The notes beneath the pieces are model-generated. The model was given only the letters and a program-made list of their open reading frames with translations. It ran no database searches and was not told the DNA's origin. A program made the position numbers and the translations under genes. A stretch of 64,000 nucleotides of DNA, taken from positions 72,511 through 136,510 of the forward strand of contig CAWJGT010000020.1 in assembly GCA_963842525.1 (NCBI GenBank), read 5' to 3'. Shown here piece by piece: positions 23,102 through 36,425 of the stretch. Within the stretch, counting starts at the first letter, position 1; each line of letters begins with the position of its first letter. This DNA comes from an uncultured Holophagales bacterium (lineage in GTDB: Bacteria > Acidobacteriota > Thermoanaerobaculia > Multivoradales > UBA5704).

Positions 23102-24679
23102 TTAGCGATAATTCTGATAGGATGGGAGTCTCGTCCAACGCGCCAGTCTGAGCTTGGGCAGGATCTGGGTCAACAGCTCCTCGATCTCGCGGGGCGGCTT
23201 CTCAAGCTGATTGGGATCTCTCGCCTTCACCCGGTCTCGATGGCGCTCGAGTTCGACCGCAGTCGCGAGAGCCGCATCCACCGCCTCCCTTTCCTCTTCG
23301 GGAACAAGGTCGGACAGCTCCTGGATCAACGCCTTGAACTGGTAAGAGCGGAGGGCTGGATAGAGGTCGGAGGGTTTGACGTCCGGGAACCAGAGCACGT
23401 TTTGGTATGTCGTCGGCGTCTGCCACCCGATCTGCTGGTTTTCATCGAGGGCACGCTCGAACGTCGCCAGGCGTGACGCGATCTCGCGATCGAGCGACTG
23501 GATCCTCGCGGTGTCGCCAGCGGCTTCGGCCGCTGGCGACCGCGCGACCGGCGTACTCTCTCCTCGCGAGAGCCGCGCCGCCCCGGTACCCTCTCTTTCC
23601 TCGCTCGTCGGGGAAGGTATCGCGCCGCTCGTTGCCCTGTCCTCCAGACCTTCGTCGCTCTCCTGCACGGGGGCGCTCGTGAGTTCGCGCATTCCTTCTG
23701 CTCGATTCGAGGCGCCTCTTCCGCGCCAGGTCGGCGCGGTCACAAGCAGCAGAGTCAAGAGCGCCAAGACGATCCCCATCGCAAGTAGAGCCTGCCGAAT
23801 CCGCCGCGGTCGTTCCCTTTCATGTCTCTCCTCGTCAGGCCTGGAGACGCTCCCCAGGACCTGCAAGAGCCGCACGAATTCCGGATAGGACCGGCTCCCG
23901 CTCCAGCCGCTCAGGTCGATGCTCGGGGCGCCACCGAATTCCGGTGGCAAGGCTACAGGCTCCACCTTGACACCAACCAGCTTCCTCCGCCCTAATGCCC
24001 ACTCAGCCTCGGCCCTGACCCAGTCGGACGCCAGTCCCCGGGGAGACCACAGGATCAGGACAGCTCCGGAAGATTCGAGGGCACGCTGGATTGAACTCTC
24101 GAACGATTCACCGACTGGGATCGAAAAGTCCCACCAGACCGGCAAGCCGCTCCTCTCGAGCGCTTGGACGAGAGCTTCCGCCCTGGCTCGGTCGTCGCGG
24201 GCATATCCCAGGAAGATGGGGTCTGCCGACGGCTTTGTCTCGAGGGGGATCAGGTCCGACTCGGCAGGTCTCTCCTGCAGGGGCTCTGTTCCCAGGTGCC
24301 GCCGTAGAGCGTCGAGGAGCCGCTGCAACTCGCCGTGATCCGTACTCGCGCCGGCCCATGTGGACAGATCGGCGTACTGGACCAGCCTGAAGGAGATCGG
24401 GACATGGGCGGGGCGGATCATGGCCGGAAAGAGCTTCCGGTGCTCCATCCCGAAGTCCGCTTCTGTCCTGACCCAGCGAGACTCGACGGAGTACGGCGAC
24501 CAGAGGGCCGTGATCGCCCTGGCGGCCGGGAGCTTCTCGTCGAGTACCTCGTCCCAGCTCTTGCCGATGGGAATAGCTCGATCCCAGAAGACCTCCCATC
24601 CCTCCCGACTGAAGACCTCAACGAGTCTTTCGGCCGTCGCCCGATCTTCGTTCGCGTAGCTCAAGAAAATATCTGGCAT
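23102..24679 (-). CDS. tandem TIR (TIR_2) domain membrane protein
   Basis: DIFLSYANED...WDRAI...WSPYSVESRWVRTEA and IFLGYARDD...WWDFSI...WS...SDWVRAEA, then a TM helix and an unknown C-terminal domain. Confidence 0.88.
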   Translation of the reverse strand: MPDIFLSYANEDRATAERLVEVFSREGWEVFWDRAIPIGKSWDEVLDEKLPAARAITALWSPYSVESRWVRTEADFGMEHRKLFPAMIRPAHVPISFRLVQYADLSTWAGASTDHGELQRLLDALRRHLGTEPLQERPAESDLIPLETKPSADPIFLGYARDDRARAEALVQALERSGLPVWWDFSIPVGESFESSIQRALESSGAVLILWSPRGLASDWVRAEAEWALGRRKLVGVKVEPVALPPEFGGAPSIDLSGWSGSRSYPEFVRLLQVLGSVSRPDEERHERERPRRIRQALLAMGIVLALLTLLLVTAPTWRGRGASNRAEGMRELTSAPVQESDEGLEDRATSGAIPSPTSEEREGTGAARLSRGESTPVARSPAAEAAGDTARIQSLDREIASRLATFERALDENQQIGWQTPTTYQNVLWFPDVKPSDLYPALRSYQFKALIQELSDLVPEEEREAVDAALATAVELERHRDRVKARDPNQLEKPPREIEELLTQILPKLRLARWTRLPSYQNYR

Positions 24680-24839
24680 ACGGGTTGCCGTTCGCGTATC
24701 TACCGGGCGCTGGCCACGCCCGGCGCGCCTGCTTTCCCGCGACATCCTCCCCTGTGGAGGTACAACCGCGGCAGTCGCCTGCCCCGAACGTCACTTGAGG
24801 AGAATCGTACACCCTCTCGACCATCAACCCTGCTACTTA

Positions 24840-25797
24840 GGGCTCGTCACGAAATAAGTGTCGCAGTTTCGGTCTTCCAAAGAAGCTCGCCAGCGATCCA
24901 GGAAGGTTCTCACCGCAGAGCCCGGTCTATCGTGTCATGCTGAACGGGAGTGTAGGATCTAGGGCGGGAAGCCGGCAGTCCTGCTGGTCCCGCGGACTGG
25001 TTCGACTCCCCGCGGTGGATGGAGCTGCTGCCGCGGTGGGCGTTGCCGCCGCCGCGGCAGCGGTTCGACTTCCCGCGGTGGCTGTAGCTGGTCCCGCGGT
25101 GGGCGTTGCCGCCGCCGCGGCAGCGGTTCGACTTCCCGCGGTGGCTGTAGCTGGTCCCGCGGCGGGCGTTGTCGCCGCCGCGGCAGCGGTTCGACTTCCC
25201 GCGGTGGCTGTAGCTGGTCCCGCGGTGGGCGTTGCCGCCGCCGCGGCAGCGGTTCGACTTCCCGCGGTGGCTGTAGCTGGTCCCGCGGCGGGCGTTGTCG
25301 CCGCCGCGGCAGCGGTTCGACTTCCCGCGGTGGCTGTAGCTGGTCCCGCGGTGGGCGTTGTCGCCGCCGCGGCAGCGGTTCGACTCCCCGCGGTGGCTGT
25401 AGCTGGTCCCGCGGCGGGCGTTGTCGCCGCCGCGGCAGCGGTTCGACTCCCTGCGGTGGCTGTAGCTGGTCCCGCGGTGGGCGTTGTCGCCGCCGCGGCA
25501 GCGGTTCGACTCGCGCAAGGGCCGAGCCATCGCCCACTGGGAGCGCCGGCGTCCCGCCGGCCCACAGTCCCCGCGGCTACGGCGACCGGCGATGGGCCTC
25601 CGCAGCCAGCCCGAACCCCCACCTCGCTTCCCGCCGTTCTTCCCAGAAGGCCGGGCTTTCGGCCCGCTGTCTTGATGATGCCGGCGAGACGCTGGCGCTC
25701 CTAGCGTCGCGCCGTACCTTTGGTGCAGTCGTCAGACGGCGTTGACTTCCCGGGGCGAGAGAGCCCGCAGATGAGACACTTATTTCGTGACGAGCCC
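24840..25797. mobile_element. non-autonomous MITE-like element, 958 bp
   Basis: Perfect 23-bp TIRs GGGCTCGTCACGAAATAAGTGTC (24840-24862; inverted at 25775-25797), TTA on both sides, no transposase inside. Confidence 0.8.
24999..25512. repeat. 63-bp tandem array, 8 full copies plus a partial copy (3 x 21-bp substructure with CCGCGG)
   Basis: ggttcgact recurs every 63 bp from 24999 to 25503. Confidence 0.96.
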
Positions 25798-28749: not shown

Positions 28750-29387
28750 AGACCCTCCTCGTGATGACCCTGGTTGTCCTGACGTCCCCGGCTCTGGGTG
28801 CGCCGGCCGACCCCCGCTCCCTGGAGGTTCTGCGGTACGACTGCGCCAGCGAGCTCGGACGGCGGGAGGTGACCCTGTTCGGCAACGGCACCATCCGCCT
28901 GCGCGAGGGTCCGCTGGGCAAGGAGCTGATGGGGCTGGCGGAGCTCAACCCGGACGAGCGGGAGGGCGCGGTGAACCGGCTGAAGGCCGAGGACCTGTCC
29001 GAGGCGAAGCAGCTGCCGAAAGGCCTCGAAGGGGCCTGGATCGAGAAGTGTATGCTGGCTCTCCAGCTTCCCGGCCAGCCGATTCAGGTGTTCCACTTCG
29101 GGCGCTATGACACCCTGCCGCTCGGGATCTCGCGGGTGGTCCAGGTCGCGCAGGACCTGGCCGCAAAGGTGCCGGCTCTTAAAGGGGACGAGGAGCTTCC
29201 GCACGACTACGAGCCGAAGGAGTGGGACGTGCTGAAGCGGGTCGACGGCTACCCCTACCGGGTCGTCGGCTTCACCTGGGACGGCCAGGGGATCGAGATG
29301 CTGGGGCTGGAGCAGCCGATCACGCTCTTCGTGCGCAAGGACCAGCTCCGCAACGAGTTCGTGGCCGTGCTGTCGAGAGGCCGGTGA
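28746..29387 (+). CDS. hypothetical secreted protein
   Basis: GTG start overlapping the previous stop, signal peptide, operonic spacing with rsmD. Confidence 0.65.
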   Translation: MKTLLVMTLVVLTSPALGAPADPRSLEVLRYDCASELGRREVTLFGNGTIRLREGPLGKELMGLAELNPDEREGAVNRLKAEDLSEAKQLPKGLEGAWIEKCMLALQLPGQPIQVFHFGRYDTLPLGISRVVQVAQDLAAKVPALKGDEELPHDYEPKEWDVLKRVDGYPYRVVGFTWDGQGIEMLGLEQPITLFVRKDQLRNEFVAVLSRGR

Positions 29388-29958: not shown

Positions 29959-31674
29959 ATGACACCTGAACGGCTCCGGCAGCTCCTTGGCGGCGAGTCC
30001 CTCGAAGTCGAGTACAAAAGCGAGCGGAGAGGGCCATTCAACGACCGGGATCTGGTCGAGGCAGTGGTCTGCCTGGCCAATCGGCCGGGAACTGGAACCG
30101 GCTACCTCCTCCTCGGAGTGGAGGACGATCGCCAGGTGACCGGCGCCAGACCCCGGCACGAAAGCGGTCGGCGGACCGATCCTCTTCTCGTACAGACATT
30201 GATCGCTCACCGGACCAGCCCCTCCCTCATCTGCCGAGCCGAGGTGGTGCCGGTTGAAGAGCGCGAGGTTCTGGTCATTGAGGTACCGGTCTCAGCAGTG
30301 CCGGTCTGCACCACTGACGGAACCTATACGAGGCGAAGGCTCGATCGGCAGGGGCGGCCGGAATGTGTCGCCTTCTCTTATCACGACATGCAGACGCAGC
30401 GGGCCGACCGGGGTCTCCTCGACTACTCTGCCCAGGTTGTCCCCGAAGCGCGGTGGGAAGATCTCGATCCCCTGGAATTCGAGCGGTTTCGCCGTAACAT
30501 CCGGGAGAGCGTAGGGGTCGGAGATCGCGCCCTCGATGAGTTGCCGGACTTGGAACTCGCCAAAGCTCTGGGGGCTGTGGAGGCGAACCATGAAGTCCGA
30601 GCGATTCGGATCCTGGGTCTGTTGCTCTTCGGCACCCCTGAGGCGCTCGGCAAGTGGATCCGCCCCTATGAGGTTGCCTTTCAGGTGCTTTCCCCTCAGG
30701 TCGAGGTCAACGACTTCTTCCACTGGCCGTTGCTGCGGGTGATCGACGAAGTCCTCACCCGCTTTCGTGCCCGCAACCGGGAGGATGAGATCTTCGCCGG
30801 ATTCCAGCGAATCGGAGTTCCCAGCTACTCGGAAATCGCTTTCCGCGAGGCCGTGGCCAACGCCCTCATTCATCGAGATTACACACGCCTCGGCGCAGTC
30901 CACATTCAATGGTGGCCGGATCGGATCGAAATCTCAAACCCCGGAGGGTTTCCTGAAGGCGTCCGGCTCGACAACCTGCTCGACACTACACCGCGGCCCC
31001 GGAACCCGCTCCTGGCAGACGCTTTCAAGCGAGCCGGAATCGTGGAGCGGACGGCCCGCGGCATTGACACGATCTTCTATGAGCAGCTTCGGAATGGACG
31101 GCCGGAGCCTGATTATGGGAGGACTTCCTCGACGAATGTCGTCCTCGTCCTCCCCGGAGGCGCCGCGGATCTGGCTTTCGTCCGCCGGGTCGTGGAGCGA
31201 GGCCTCGCCGGTGAGCGGCTGGGCCTGCCTTCGCTCCAAGCGTTCTGGCAGGAATGGCAAGGAGCCAAAGCTCAATCCTCGCCCGAGCGCCTCTTGGAGC
31301 CCACCGGTGAGGATGGGCTGATCATCATCTCCATTGGAGGCGAATCCATTCGGCCGACTGTCGAGGCATCCCTTGAAGAGTTGGGTCTTCATCCAGCCCT
31401 CGTTCTCGTCGACTTCCACTCCACCGAATACGTGGCGCCGGAAAGGAGGGGATGGGAGGCGGAAGCACGGCAGATCCGGAATCTCGTCAAGAGCTTCGTT
31501 GAAGACCCCCGCGTCTCGCGCCTCCACCTCTTCTATCGCGGGCCCGTGGTCCTGGCCCCTTTGCTCGGGGCCTTGATTGCACCCGTCAAGCCTCTGATCG
31601 TCTATTATTACCAGGACGGCGGCTACCGGCCGGCGTACACCTTGAACAGGAGGTTCCTCATCTCCAGAGATTGA
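29959..31674 (+). CDS. AlbA_2 (Schlafen-like) + HATPase_c_4 (RecG C-terminal-like) protein with C-terminal SAVED-like module
   Basis: GESLEVEYKS...CLAN...GYLLLGVED; REAVANALIHRDY, ISNPGG, PRNPLLA; tail LHLFYRGPVVLAPLLG...VYYYQ..GYRP. Confidence 0.8.
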   Translation: MTPERLRQLLGGESLEVEYKSERRGPFNDRDLVEAVVCLANRPGTGTGYLLLGVEDDRQVTGARPRHESGRRTDPLLVQTLIAHRTSPSLICRAEVVPVEEREVLVIEVPVSAVPVCTTDGTYTRRRLDRQGRPECVAFSYHDMQTQRADRGLLDYSAQVVPEARWEDLDPLEFERFRRNIRESVGVGDRALDELPDLELAKALGAVEANHEVRAIRILGLLLFGTPEALGKWIRPYEVAFQVLSPQVEVNDFFHWPLLRVIDEVLTRFRARNREDEIFAGFQRIGVPSYSEIAFREAVANALIHRDYTRLGAVHIQWWPDRIEISNPGGFPEGVRLDNLLDTTPRPRNPLLADAFKRAGIVERTARGIDTIFYEQLRNGRPEPDYGRTSSTNVVLVLPGGAADLAFVRRVVERGLAGERLGLPSLQAFWQEWQGAKAQSSPERLLEPTGEDGLIIISIGGESIRPTVEASLEELGLHPALVLVDFHSTEYVAPERRGWEAEARQIRNLVKSFVEDPRVSRLHLFYRGPVVLAPLLGALIAPVKPLIVYYYQDGGYRPAYTLNRRFLISRD

Positions 31675-31691
31675 AGAGGTCAGGGATGGCT

Positions 31692-31979
31692 TGACACAAG
31701 GCCCTCCGTCGCGCGAGCGGCGGATGCAAATCGGGTGAATTGCCGGAAAGCCCGGGGACGGGTCACCGGCAGCCAAGGCCGGCATGGAGGATCGCGATCC
31801 GAGGGGCTGGCAAGGTTCAGAGACTAGGACCCGAGCGAAAGCGGTAATGGTCCCACGAGCGCCCGACGCCTCCCTCGGGAGGCGATGAGATAGTCCGTTC
31901 TACCGACATGATCCGGTGTTTCTTGAAACGGTAGAAGCCGGGGATAAAGAGCCTCGGCGGTAACAAACCCTGGCTAAAG
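31692..31979 (+). ncRNA. group I intron-like ribozyme without evident host gene
   Basis: P element AATTGCCGGAAA, Q ACCGGCAGC, R GTTCAGAGACTA (31815-31826), S GAGATAGTCC (31887-31896); P3 TCGGGTG/CGCCCGA; P1, P2, P8, P9 helices visible; 3' end uncertain (G31972 or G31979). Confidence 0.85.
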
Positions 31980-32048
31980 TTCCCAGGACCTCTTCAGCGG
32001 CAGCTCATTTTTTCGCCTGACCGGATAGAATCCCCCTCGCCAACGGTC

Positions 32049-36007: not shown

Positions 36008-36425
36008 ATGGCATTCCGTGGCTCTTTGGAGCGGAGGGACTCCTTACGGCGGGAGGACTTCACCCACGCGAAACGCAAATCGCGGGAGCTGCGCAGAGAG
36101 CCGACCGAGTCCGAAGCGGCGCTCTGGGAGTTGCTGAGGAACCGGAGCCTCGTTGGAATGAAGTTCCGGCGGCAGGTGCCGGTTGACCGCTACATCGTCG
36201 ATTTCTACTGTCACGACCGAAGGCTTGTCGTAGAGGCTCGACGGGGACATCCATGCCTTACCCGAGCAGGAGATGCATGACGCAAGTCGTGACACCCACC
36301 TGCGCTCCCTCGGTTTGAGAATTCTCCGCATCCCCAACGCTGTGATCTTCAAAGATCCCGATGCAGTCTTGAGGGCAATTCGCGAGGCGGCAAACCGTCC
36401 CGTGGCCATCCCGAAGAGCAGGTAA
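36008..36425 (+). CDS. DUF559 (Vsr-like) endonuclease, apparent frameshift near 36238
   Basis: LRREPTESEAALW.LLR...KFRRQ.P..YIVDFYC...LVVE, continuing DG.IH...RD.HL...G.RILR in another frame. Confidence 0.85.

Follow-up and report, generated by a model that had tools for sequence, protein, structure and literature searches.

Bacterial Schlafen proteins are described as phage-activated tRNases that are fused to varied sensors (PMC13056530). Cash, a fusion of Schlafen and Csx15 (33.4 kDa), is reported to be switched on by cyclic tetra-adenylate (cA4), to form filaments and to cleave tRNA (PMC13462974). Csx15 proteins are portrayed as ring nucleases, which act in cis or in trans and are single-lobe relatives of SAVED, and N-terminal fusions of Csx15 to Schlafen, Csx1, EAD and helix-turn-helix (HTH) domains as well as to transmembrane helices are listed in the same source (preprint 10.64898/2026.10.26.761840). 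Csx15 ring nucleases are also the subject of a second preprint (10.64898/2026.01.21.700848). This report deals with a gene from an uncultured Holophagales bacterium, located on a stretch of 64,000 nt that is here called the window (assembly GCA_963842525.1, contig CAWJGT010000020.1, positions 72,511 to 136,510 of the forward strand). The gene encodes a 571 aa protein composed of a Schlafen/AlbA_2 domain, a GHKL-like HATPase_c_4 region and, according to profile and structural comparisons, a single SAVED lobe. Directly behind it lies a group I ribozyme.

The window protein resembles Cash (CbCash) in that a Schlafen domain with an Ex4(D/E)xK signature is followed by a single Rossmann-like lobe of the SAVED/Csx15 type, and in its link to type III CRISPR. 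A protein with the layout of Cash, P0211 (306 aa), matches the window lobe with an E-value of 6.9e-4. Whereas Cash is a two-domain protein of ~33 kDa encoded in type III loci, the window protein contains ~300 extra residues, including HATPase_c_4, between nuclease and sensor, its gene lies away from cas genes, and SAVED is the family to which its lobe is assigned by score. The structural matches, from a library that extends up to 2026-04-08, did not include 9YLV or other structures of Cash. With Csx15, the window protein has in common that a single lobe corresponds to one SAVED subdomain, that it would act in trans, and that the fusions reported for Csx15 (Schlafen, HTH, transmembrane helices) are of the same kinds as those seen for the sensor module. 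The main texts examined on Csx15 and Cash name no fusion that contains HATPase_c_4 or ParA, and the word 'ATPase' does not occur in preprint 10.64898/2026.10.26.761840. The main text of PMC13056530 mentions neither SAVED nor CARF, ATPase or intron.

The SAVED effectors Cap4 (6vm6), Cap5 (8ysq, 7rwk), CalpL (7qda), Lon-SAVED (9eyi), TIR-SAVED (7qqk), SAVED-CHAT (8tl0) and viral SAVED (9r8s) share the fold of the C-terminal lobe with the window protein as well as the core motif HLFxxGP...A..LG. They differ from it in having two fused lobes that form a pseudo-dimer. In overall length (~565 aa) and in their body, the proteins of the AlbA_2-HATPase_c_4-winged HTH (wHTH) family, for which 3lmm is a solved example, are alike. 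They are often labelled 'ATP-dependent DNA helicase RecG' or 'putative DNA binding domain-containing protein' and carry a C-terminal wHTH, whereas the window protein has a sensor lobe instead. Of the 120 best matches, P0002 alone has the same swap. Titles and abstract openings of the literature pairing AlbA_2 with HATPase_c_4 yielded nothing relevant. Seen against these systems, the window protein is best read as a larger, ATPase-containing Cash-like effector that is encoded in trans and was made by a domain swap, with about an even chance that it has an RNase activity gated by cyclic oligoadenylate.

Domain architecture and chimeric origin of the protein

Two families were recovered by Pfam in the first 400 residues: SLFN_AlbA_2 (PF04326; 50.1 bits against a cut-off of 25.3, E 5e-13, residues 13-127) and HATPase_c_4 (PF13749; 68.8 bits against a cut-off of 26, E 4e-19, residues 313-392). 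The motif GESLEVEYKS comprises E13, E16, E18 and K20, and E13-x4-E18-x-K20 corresponds to Ex4(D/E)xK, which is given as the Schlafen signature (preprint 10.64898/2026.10.26.761840). In an alignment of the protein with nine relatives (A1), E18 and K20 are invariant and E13 is conserved to at least 90%. Residues 30-405 match chain A of 3lmm at 5e-19. Likeness to the wHTH family extends to the LGLPSLQ stretch (about residues 425-430) and not beyond, and no HTH family was matched in the entire protein by the Pfam scan. The predicted fold of the full-length protein, calculated from the 10 sequences of A1, has a mean pLDDT (predicted local distance difference test) of 59.2 and a pTM (predicted template modelling score) of 0.33; it is confident for residues 1-140 only and reaches a pLDDT of 31-50 in the HATPase_c_4 region (residues 300-399).

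The remaining C-terminal part was assigned to SAVED by three profile collections, each time to the end of the profile. Pfam SAVED (PF18145) matches residues 494-561 with positions 118-189 of 190 only (2.5e-6, 27.8 bits against a cut-off of 26.2), and the C-terminal 141 aa alone reach 31.4 bits. The NCBIfam model NF033611 matches with 40.7 bits (cut-off 33) over positions 194-260 of 261. The best sensor model of PADLOC, SAVED4--SAVED_TM, aligns residues 449-564 to positions 163-272 of 278 (4.3e-11). A profile of 28 module sequences found both lobes of viral SAVED 9r8s (9e-20) and of Lon-SAVED 9eyi (7.3e-14), followed by Cap4, Cap5, CalpL, SAVED-CHAT and TIR-SAVED. Full SAVED proteins are matched twice by the module, one match per lobe, and since both lobes match it, the module corresponds to one lobe. 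An AlphaFold2 model of the lobe, based on the same 28-sequence alignment, is an alpha/beta domain with a mean pLDDT of 87.4 and a pTM of 0.80. Compared with 48161 solved chains, its top 13 matches are all SAVED domains (Z 9.0-12.2), with the viral SAVED ring nuclease 9r8s as the best (Z 12.2). Most of them align over 106-117 residues to the second lobe (root mean square deviation 2.3-3.3 A). CARF chains rank below SAVED (Z 6.5-8.0), and Foldseek agrees with Cap4 (1e-5). Two fused CARF-like lobes in one chain are not present, as the module has ~120 aa and aligns to SAVED lobe 2. As modelled, a single SAVED lobe occupies the C-terminal position where a wHTH is usual. Single SAVED-like lobes are called Csx15-like, and SAVED is argued to be derived by duplication of such a lobe (preprint 10.64898/2026.10.26.761840). 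A model or chain named Csx15 was not among the PADLOC, NCBIfam, profile or structure matches, and whether these libraries include one is uncertain. In HaCsx15, H8 and R125 are the ring-nuclease residues.

These results agree with the sequence-only reading of the gene, which had proposed AlbA_2 with GESLEVEYKS, HATPase_c_4 in the middle, a break in family likeness near LGLPSLQ and a C-terminal half of SAVED instead of the usual wHTH. Among the contrary outcomes it had named were a wHTH or an unrelated fold; neither was obtained, because each of the 13 best structural matches is a SAVED domain. Two findings go beyond it, namely that the protein appears as a chimera of two distant lineages and that a conserved group I ribozyme is located behind the gene.

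The module occurs in a variety of proteins. When the last 141 residues of the window protein were searched against 1.84 billion cluster representatives (E <=0.001), 92 clusters were matched, 48 of them at 1e-10 or better. After 12 short ones had been left out, 80 were scanned against Pfam. HATPase_c_4 was found in 20 full-length proteins of 533-568 aa, 19 of which also match AlbA_2, and in 14 N-truncated fragments. Other fusion partners were a ParA/MinD-like ATPase (five clusters) and an XRE-type HTH (two); AlbA_2 with nothing else but the module was seen once, in P0211. Many of the matching clusters are short proteins of 157-208 aa.

Body and sensor of the window protein have different relatives. 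Apart from P0002, which covers 99% of the protein, the 120 best among 4643 protein matches cover 73-84% and mostly carry wHTH families. With 118 wHTH proteins, the body (residues 1-425) shares 64.7-72.1% identity (median 67.5%). With other AlbA_2-HATPase_c_4 proteins that bear the module, identity is mostly 26-41% for the body, where the alignment often covers a part only, and 32-66% for the module; for the genome-derived relatives L016-L019 the values are 26-38% and 64-70%. Database and genome-derived sensor-bearing relatives together amount to mostly 23-41% for the body and 32-70% for the module. In a tree of 62 bodies, P0001 and P0002 group with 28 sampled wHTH proteins (support 100 in the Shimodaira-Hasegawa-like approximate likelihood ratio test), and the branch between this group and all 32 bodies of the sensor lineage amounts to 2.45 plus 0.29 changes per column. 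In a tree of 50 modules, the window module falls inside the sensor lineage together with P0123, P0125, L021 and L016-L019 (support 85, path to L016 0.81); the placement of P0002 is unresolved there, and ParA-fused modules are scattered among the remainder. DNA similarity between the window and L016 is confined to 31303-31980, and a synteny comparison found no neighbour genes shared with L016-L019.

Judged from these comparisons, the protein is a chimera, with a body of the wHTH clade and a sensor that came, together with the 3' ribozyme, from a sensor-bearing lineage of the Acidobacteriota. A body of the wHTH type would have received the sensor cassette by transfer. That an ancestral sensor was retained appears less likely, because divergence is far lower among the modules than among the bodies.

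The gene is compositionally foreign and present in a single copy. Its G+C content at third codon positions (GC3) is 0.724 compared with 0.847-0.927 in eight flanking genes (e.g. RsmD 0.886, a poly(A)-polymerase-family gene 0.899, DUF3592 0.870), as had been noticed before from its more A/T-ending codons; the frame at 28760-29387 is left out of this comparison. Two further window genes, DHH-CBS and TIR-TIR, have a GC3 of 0.804 and 0.750, respectively. A close paralogue is not encoded in the own genome, where the best other match to the body shows 32% identity over 187 aa and a second module is not found.

The group I ribozyme in the 3' UTR

An Rfam scan of the window yielded RF00028 at 31652-31915 (55.9 bits against a gathering score of 50, E 1.7e-11, model positions 1-253) and, apart from this, one tRNA only. 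It is the sole RF00028 match in the genome. Of 16 related loci, 15 also have RF00028 right behind the module gene, at 53.3-78.9 bits; L026 is untestable, since this locus stops at the gene end. Including the window and the ParA-type locus L022, the ribozyme follows the sensor gene in all 16 testable loci, down to a sensor identity of ~33%. Its P1 hairpin starts 14 nt past the stop codon in the window and 15-47 nt past the last sense codon in the loci. P1 contains a U.G wobble in all 16 sequences. The group I core is complete from P2 to P9.1, and covarying P9 and P9.1 lead to the tail motif. RNAalifold predicts 69 pairs, 27 of which are affected by compensatory double changes. The flanking sequences pair with each other: the mean energy is -22.9 kcal/mol for cognate duplexes, compared with -13.7 kcal/mol for 240 non-cognate pairs (standard deviation 6.1). 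In 9 of the 16 loci, the cognate partner surpasses all others, and in the rest it is equalled by 1-3 close relatives. Therefore, the ribozyme is placed in the loop of a hairpin in the 3' untranslated region (UTR). It probably processes itself.

The P1 and splice sites of the Rfam match were rejected. There, P1 would cover the last codons, and splicing would change the C-terminus from ...ISRD to ...MCFLKR. The relatives, however, end like the unspliced form, and all 16 sequences share the other P1 hairpin past the stop codon. A tRNA host was considered as well, and no tRNA gene is present at the ribozyme site. A large second exon is absent, as at most 15 codons are open after 31915 in any frame.

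The identity of the ribozymes tracks that of the sensors (Spearman 0.79, 120 non-independent pairs), and the window ribozyme is nearest to those of L016-L019 (0.88-0.89), as is its sensor. The ribozyme thus seems to be inherited with the sensor. In L018 (9240-9265) and L019 (1309-1335), the tail motif is doubled: GGCTAAGA is followed ~15 nt later by GGCTAAAG, so that the cassette has a small duplication at its 3' boundary.

The window ribozyme is like bacterial group I introns (RF00028) in its full core, in the U.G wobble of P1 and in its hairpin-loop site, which is also found for tRNA introns. It differs from them in its position in the 3' UTR past a protein gene and not in a tRNA, rRNA or reading frame. 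Furthermore, it is inherited with one protein domain (16/16 loci), and neither a riboswitch nor an endonuclease gene is attached. Lee et al. are said to have described in 2010 a group I ribozyme of Clostridioides difficile that is controlled by c-di-GMP. Titles and abstract openings of the literature on group I introns and ribozymes contained nothing relevant that links them to SAVED, CBASS, type III CRISPR or cyclic oligoadenylate.

To find the ribozyme elsewhere, a pattern of its core was used. It occurs at 42 metagenome loci, of which 34 are testable and 8, with at most 266 nt upstream, are not. A SAVED-type gene is located just upstream in 22 of the 34. In 19 loci, an open reading frame (ORF) with the module ends 139-210 nt before the pattern (hidden Markov model from alignment A2, E <=0.001). 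L038 has a frameshifted remnant of the module, as judged by eye, and in L054 and L057, AAA-ATPase_like and PDDEXK_9 domains are followed at the end by a SAVED match that does not reach the Pfam cut-off (6.4e-5 and 2.2e-5). The upstream ORFs of L040 and L063 end in what we take to be CARF-type motifs, with a weak Pfam match to CARF_Card1 (0.0028) in L063 only. Ten loci have other or unrecognisable sequence upstream, including ORFs that are apparently interrupted by the intron. The bodies that precede the sensor vary: AlbA_2-HATPase_c_4 was found in nine loci, an XRE-HTH in L074, HATPase_c_4 with a full two-lobe SAVED in L043, and an N-terminal part without a recognised family in front of a full SAVED in L046. 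In L060, a 181 aa lobe stands alone before the ribozyme core. Two viral contigs, L076 (9470-10030) and L077, have the core within a phage ORF (...ESLENTLKVN before the intron), in the manner of an ordinary intron, and this ORF apparently contains two group I cores ~300 nt apart. Among annotated phages, blastn found nothing that matches the ribozyme.

Among public sequencing runs, none contained more than 0.09 of the sampled words of the stretch. Contigs from four metatranscriptomes, which are 80-95% alike and stem from relatives, cover 31688-31980 only and no upstream coding region. Two contigs of run X9 are circularly permuted, so that the 3' part of the ribozyme precedes its 5' part, and a loose end in run X21 reads the tail GGCU, then the P1 loop and the guide sequence. 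This suggests a circular RNA of ~280 nt or tandem copies; the contigs cannot separate the two or place the junction, and DNA may be present in the RNA library.

Type III CRISPR genes and genomic context

The sequence-only reading regarded the gene as an orphan and noticed neither a cyclase nor a cas gene in the window. Locally, this holds for the twelve ORFs scanned between 23.1 and 39.1 kb of the window, which include no cas or cyclase gene (other parts of the window were not scanned for them). For the genome (9.95 Mb, 34 contigs, 96.4% complete), it does not hold, as Cas10 is encoded on contig C14 and carriers of the gene also have type III genes. The search for Cas10 and CD-NTase genes proposed in that reading was thus successful for Cas10, whereas CD-NTase (SMODS) gave no match in the 96.4% complete genome; Cmr2 was not matched in it either. 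Cas10-like matches were confined to contigs C14 and C12. On C14, a type III CRISPR module extends over ~142.9-168.0 kb (L014, L015) with all genes in one direction. They encode CHAT-SAVED, an ECF-type (extracytoplasmic function) sigma factor, TPR-CHAT, Cas10, several Csm3/RAMP proteins, Cas5 (Csx10-type), Csm2 and TIR-SAVED. Cas10 (PADLOC 2.3e-32, Pfam palm2 4.9e-8) contains a GGGDE motif, and TIR-SAVED matches its PADLOC model with 1.9e-107. Directly behind the module, a simple repeat scan found three CRISPR arrays with 17, 29 and 14 repeats, and a related array of 8 repeats is located on contig C22. The position of the sigma factor between two CHAT proteases recalls protease-controlled signalling cascades. 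A weak match to Csm1 (3.3e-6, first 99 model positions) is located away from this module in a 516 aa frame of contig C12 (82677-82946, minus strand; L013). A further CRISPR-like array, on contig C3 (1741544-1745363), consists of 39 repeats whose sequence is different.

When one genome per species was scanned, 17 module loci were found, nearly all in Acidobacteriota and two in Polyangiaceae. After removal of L032 with a partial match of 39 residues, 16 carrier genomes were counted. RAMP matches are present in 15, Cas10 palm2 matches in 13 and SMODS matches in 5 of them. For comparison, an even sample of the phylum, in which one unpublished genome (G065) is included, has RAMPs in 47 of 300 genomes (48 of 301 with the own genome). 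In all 15 carriers that have them, the type III genes are found on other contigs or more than 1 Mb away (about 1.5 Mb). The difference between carriers and phylum is a strong hint and not a formal test, because the carriers are large and related, two are outside the sampled phylum, and genome size is uncontrolled. In one carrier (G002), a second weak match to the sensor module (C9:18022-18396, plus strand; 5.1e-4, 503 aa frame) lies right behind RAMP and Cas10 genes (C9:10429-16563). With this second match, G002 would have one sensor gene in a cas locus and one in trans.

The features of the locus are compiled in the following table.

Features of the sensor gene and its 3' ribozyme (positions in the window)
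Feature	Position	Strand	Basis
ORF, 571 aa, Schlafen/AlbA_2 + HATPase_c_4 + single SAVED lobe	29959..31674	+	ORF translation, Pfam, PADLOC, NCBIfam
AlbA_2/Schlafen domain, residues 13-127, Ex4ExK signature E13/E18/K20	29995..30339	+	Pfam 5e-13
HATPase_c_4 (GHKL-like) region, residues 313-392	30895..31134	+	Pfam 4e-19
Junction between body (wHTH-clade type) and sensor cassette, residues ~425-448	31231..31302	+	limits of protein and DNA similarity
Single SAVED lobe (Csx15-like sensor), residues ~449-564	31303..31650	+	PADLOC, Pfam, NCBIfam, AlphaFold2, structural matches
Closing helix, 5' strand, between stop codon and P1	31675..31687	+	pairs with 31981-31993
Group I ribozyme from P1 (GGCU|U...AAGGCC, 31688-31703) to tail motif GGCUAAAG (31972-31979)	31688..31979	+	RF00028 and comparative structure
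Closing helix, 3' strand	31981..31993	+	comparative alignment, flank duplex energies

About 5 kb upstream of the gene (window 23102-24745, minus strand), a TIR-TIR protein of 547 aa is encoded. It has two TIR_2 domains (7.9e-43) and, as judged by reading the sequence, a hydrophobic stretch behind them. Since its GC3 of 0.75 is below that of its neighbours, this gene may be another acquired defence-type gene. At 36008-36280 (plus strand), a 90 aa ORF matches positions 3-59 of 109 of DUF559 only (3.1e-21) and is apparently a truncated copy. A tandem array of 8 copies of a 22-mer, spaced by 50-100 nt and open in several frames, is located at 24910-25530 (contig C20 97556-98000). Similar 22-mers form small arrays on many contigs of the same genome.

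Proposed function and competing explanations

The gene product probably serves as an immune effector, and the RNA that accompanies it was unexpected. More specifically, the chances are balanced that the gene encodes a defence effector, i.e. a Schlafen RNase gated by cyclic oligoadenylate, which would work in trans together with the type III CRISPR-Cas module of contig C14. As there is a single lobe per chain and not a fused pseudo-dimer as in SAVED, a binding pocket would need two subunits, whose lobes might pair to accommodate cyclic oligoadenylate. The latter would be made by Cas10 once the CRISPR complex meets its target RNA. Binding of the ligand may then lead to oligomerisation and switch on the Schlafen RNase, and cleavage of tRNA or other RNA would stop growth and block the phage. 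The exchange of the wHTH for a sensor would have rewired a Schlafen-GHKL protein from a DNA-linked to a cyclic-nucleotide input.

Several observations weigh against this proposal. None of 17 genomes has the gene beside cas genes, RAMP and Cas10 matches are both missing from one carrier (G001), and three carriers are without a Cas10 palm2 match. The carriers are large (4.2-11.7 Mb), mutually related and of unstated completeness, and the two Polyangiaceae are outside the sampled phylum. The AlbA_2 domain has no profile likeness to Cash or mammalian SLFN chains, and in the literature examined no nuclease activity is shown for the AlbA_2-HATPase_c_4 family. Schlafen-ATPase-DNA-binding proteins are reported to be tied to BREX, restriction-modification and type I CRISPR (PMC13462974). 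The other SAVED effectors of the genome belong to the SAVED-CHAT and TIR-SAVED families, which, according to titles in the protein structure database PDB, were solved with cyclic tri-adenylate (cA3) or as cA3-activated filaments. As to the origin of the protein, P0001 and P0002 are found at the base of the 28 sampled wHTH proteins and not inside, as would be possible with an ancestral sensor.

Three other functions of the protein were considered. The lobe could read a nucleotide unrelated to CRISPR (c-di-GMP, c-di-AMP or another one) in a stress or housekeeping regulator, and the type III link would then result from sampling large, related genomes. This would be in line with the location of the gene among housekeeping genes in the window and in L016 and never beside cas genes, with the GGDEF-EAL proteins encoded in the own genome and with the carrier G001 that has no type III match. 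It is nevertheless unlikely: the gap between 15 of 16 carriers and 47 of 300 sampled genomes is large, the nearest profile relatives of the lobe are type III-associated SAVED proteins as well as the CRISPR-Lon and CARF models of PADLOC, and the codon usage of the gene is foreign. Somewhat less probable still is a role as signal quencher, in which the lobe would be a Csx15-like ring nuclease or sponge for cyclic oligoadenylates and the Schlafen-GHKL body would have another or a regulatory role. The two nearest relatives of the lobe by profile, viral SAVED 9r8s, which is also the best structural match, and Lon-SAVED, are both ring nucleases, and stand-alone Csx15 ring nucleases are reported to act in trans (preprint 10.64898/2026.10.26.761840); the window gene is encoded in trans. 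By contrast, the retained catalytic signature of Schlafen points to an effector output, and in the sole characterised Schlafen-Csx15 fusion, the lobe is described as an activating sensor (PMC13462974). Equally improbable as quenching is an output at the DNA, i.e. a Schlafen-GHKL body that acts with or on DNA by a MORC- or Tiamat-like logic with the sensor as a gate. Besides the above-mentioned neighbourhood of Schlafen-ATPase-DNA-binding proteins to BREX, restriction-modification and type I CRISPR, it is favoured by GHL ATPases like Tiamat, which are reported to be DNases and of which some have Schlafen-like domains devoid of catalytic residues (preprint 10.64898/2026.09.30.754977). In the window protein, however, the Ex4ExK residues are present and the DNA-binding wHTH has been lost, and no Tiamat model of PADLOC was matched at E <=1.

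For the ribozyme, two explanations compete. It may be a selfish group I intron trapped in the 3'-UTR hairpin, passively inherited and without a role for the effector, and this is nearly an even bet. The same core forms ordinary introns that interrupt phage ORFs (L037, L044, L067, L076, L077), 10 of the 34 testable metagenome loci have no sensor gene upstream, and group I introns are known as mobile elements of bacteria and phages (PMC3984707). Against a mere passenger speak its maintenance in all 16 testable loci, even at ~33% sensor identity, its co-divergence with the sensor, with which it appears to have travelled onto a new body, the intact core in spite of the fact that there is no reading frame to restore, and the absence of a homing endonuclease gene. 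More tentatively, lobe and ribozyme may constitute one inherited and exchangeable 3' cassette, in which self-processing helps to control cyclic-nucleotide-sensing immune proteins. In such a cassette, processing could mean splicing from the 3'-UTR hairpin or release as a circle of ~280 nt. It might set the 3' end or the lifetime of the mRNA for a toxic effector, or it might yield a stable structured RNA that acts together with the protein.

Schlafen-sensor fusions were first characterised in 2026, and the window gene adds a larger, ATPase-containing form that is located away from a CRISPR locus. If the proposed origin is correct, it is a clear natural case of input rewiring, in which a DNA-binding domain was exchanged for a cyclic-nucleotide sensor of a distant lineage. 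Surveys of cas neighbourhoods miss such effectors, as the gene is located elsewhere in 17 of 17 genomes. The conserved ribozyme in the 3' UTR is a more surprising result than the protein: the literature searched contained no counterpart to SAVED-type sensor genes that, in several architectures, are followed by a conserved group I ribozyme. If this ribozyme is functional, a self-splicing RNA would be linked to bacterial immune signalling. Should the cassette hypothesis be true, the ribozyme would be the first example of a catalytic intron that was enlisted for cyclic-oligonucleotide immunity, and the cassette would provide a route by which sensors are shuffled among effector bodies as different as Schlafen-GHKL, ParA, HTH and PD-(D/E)xK.

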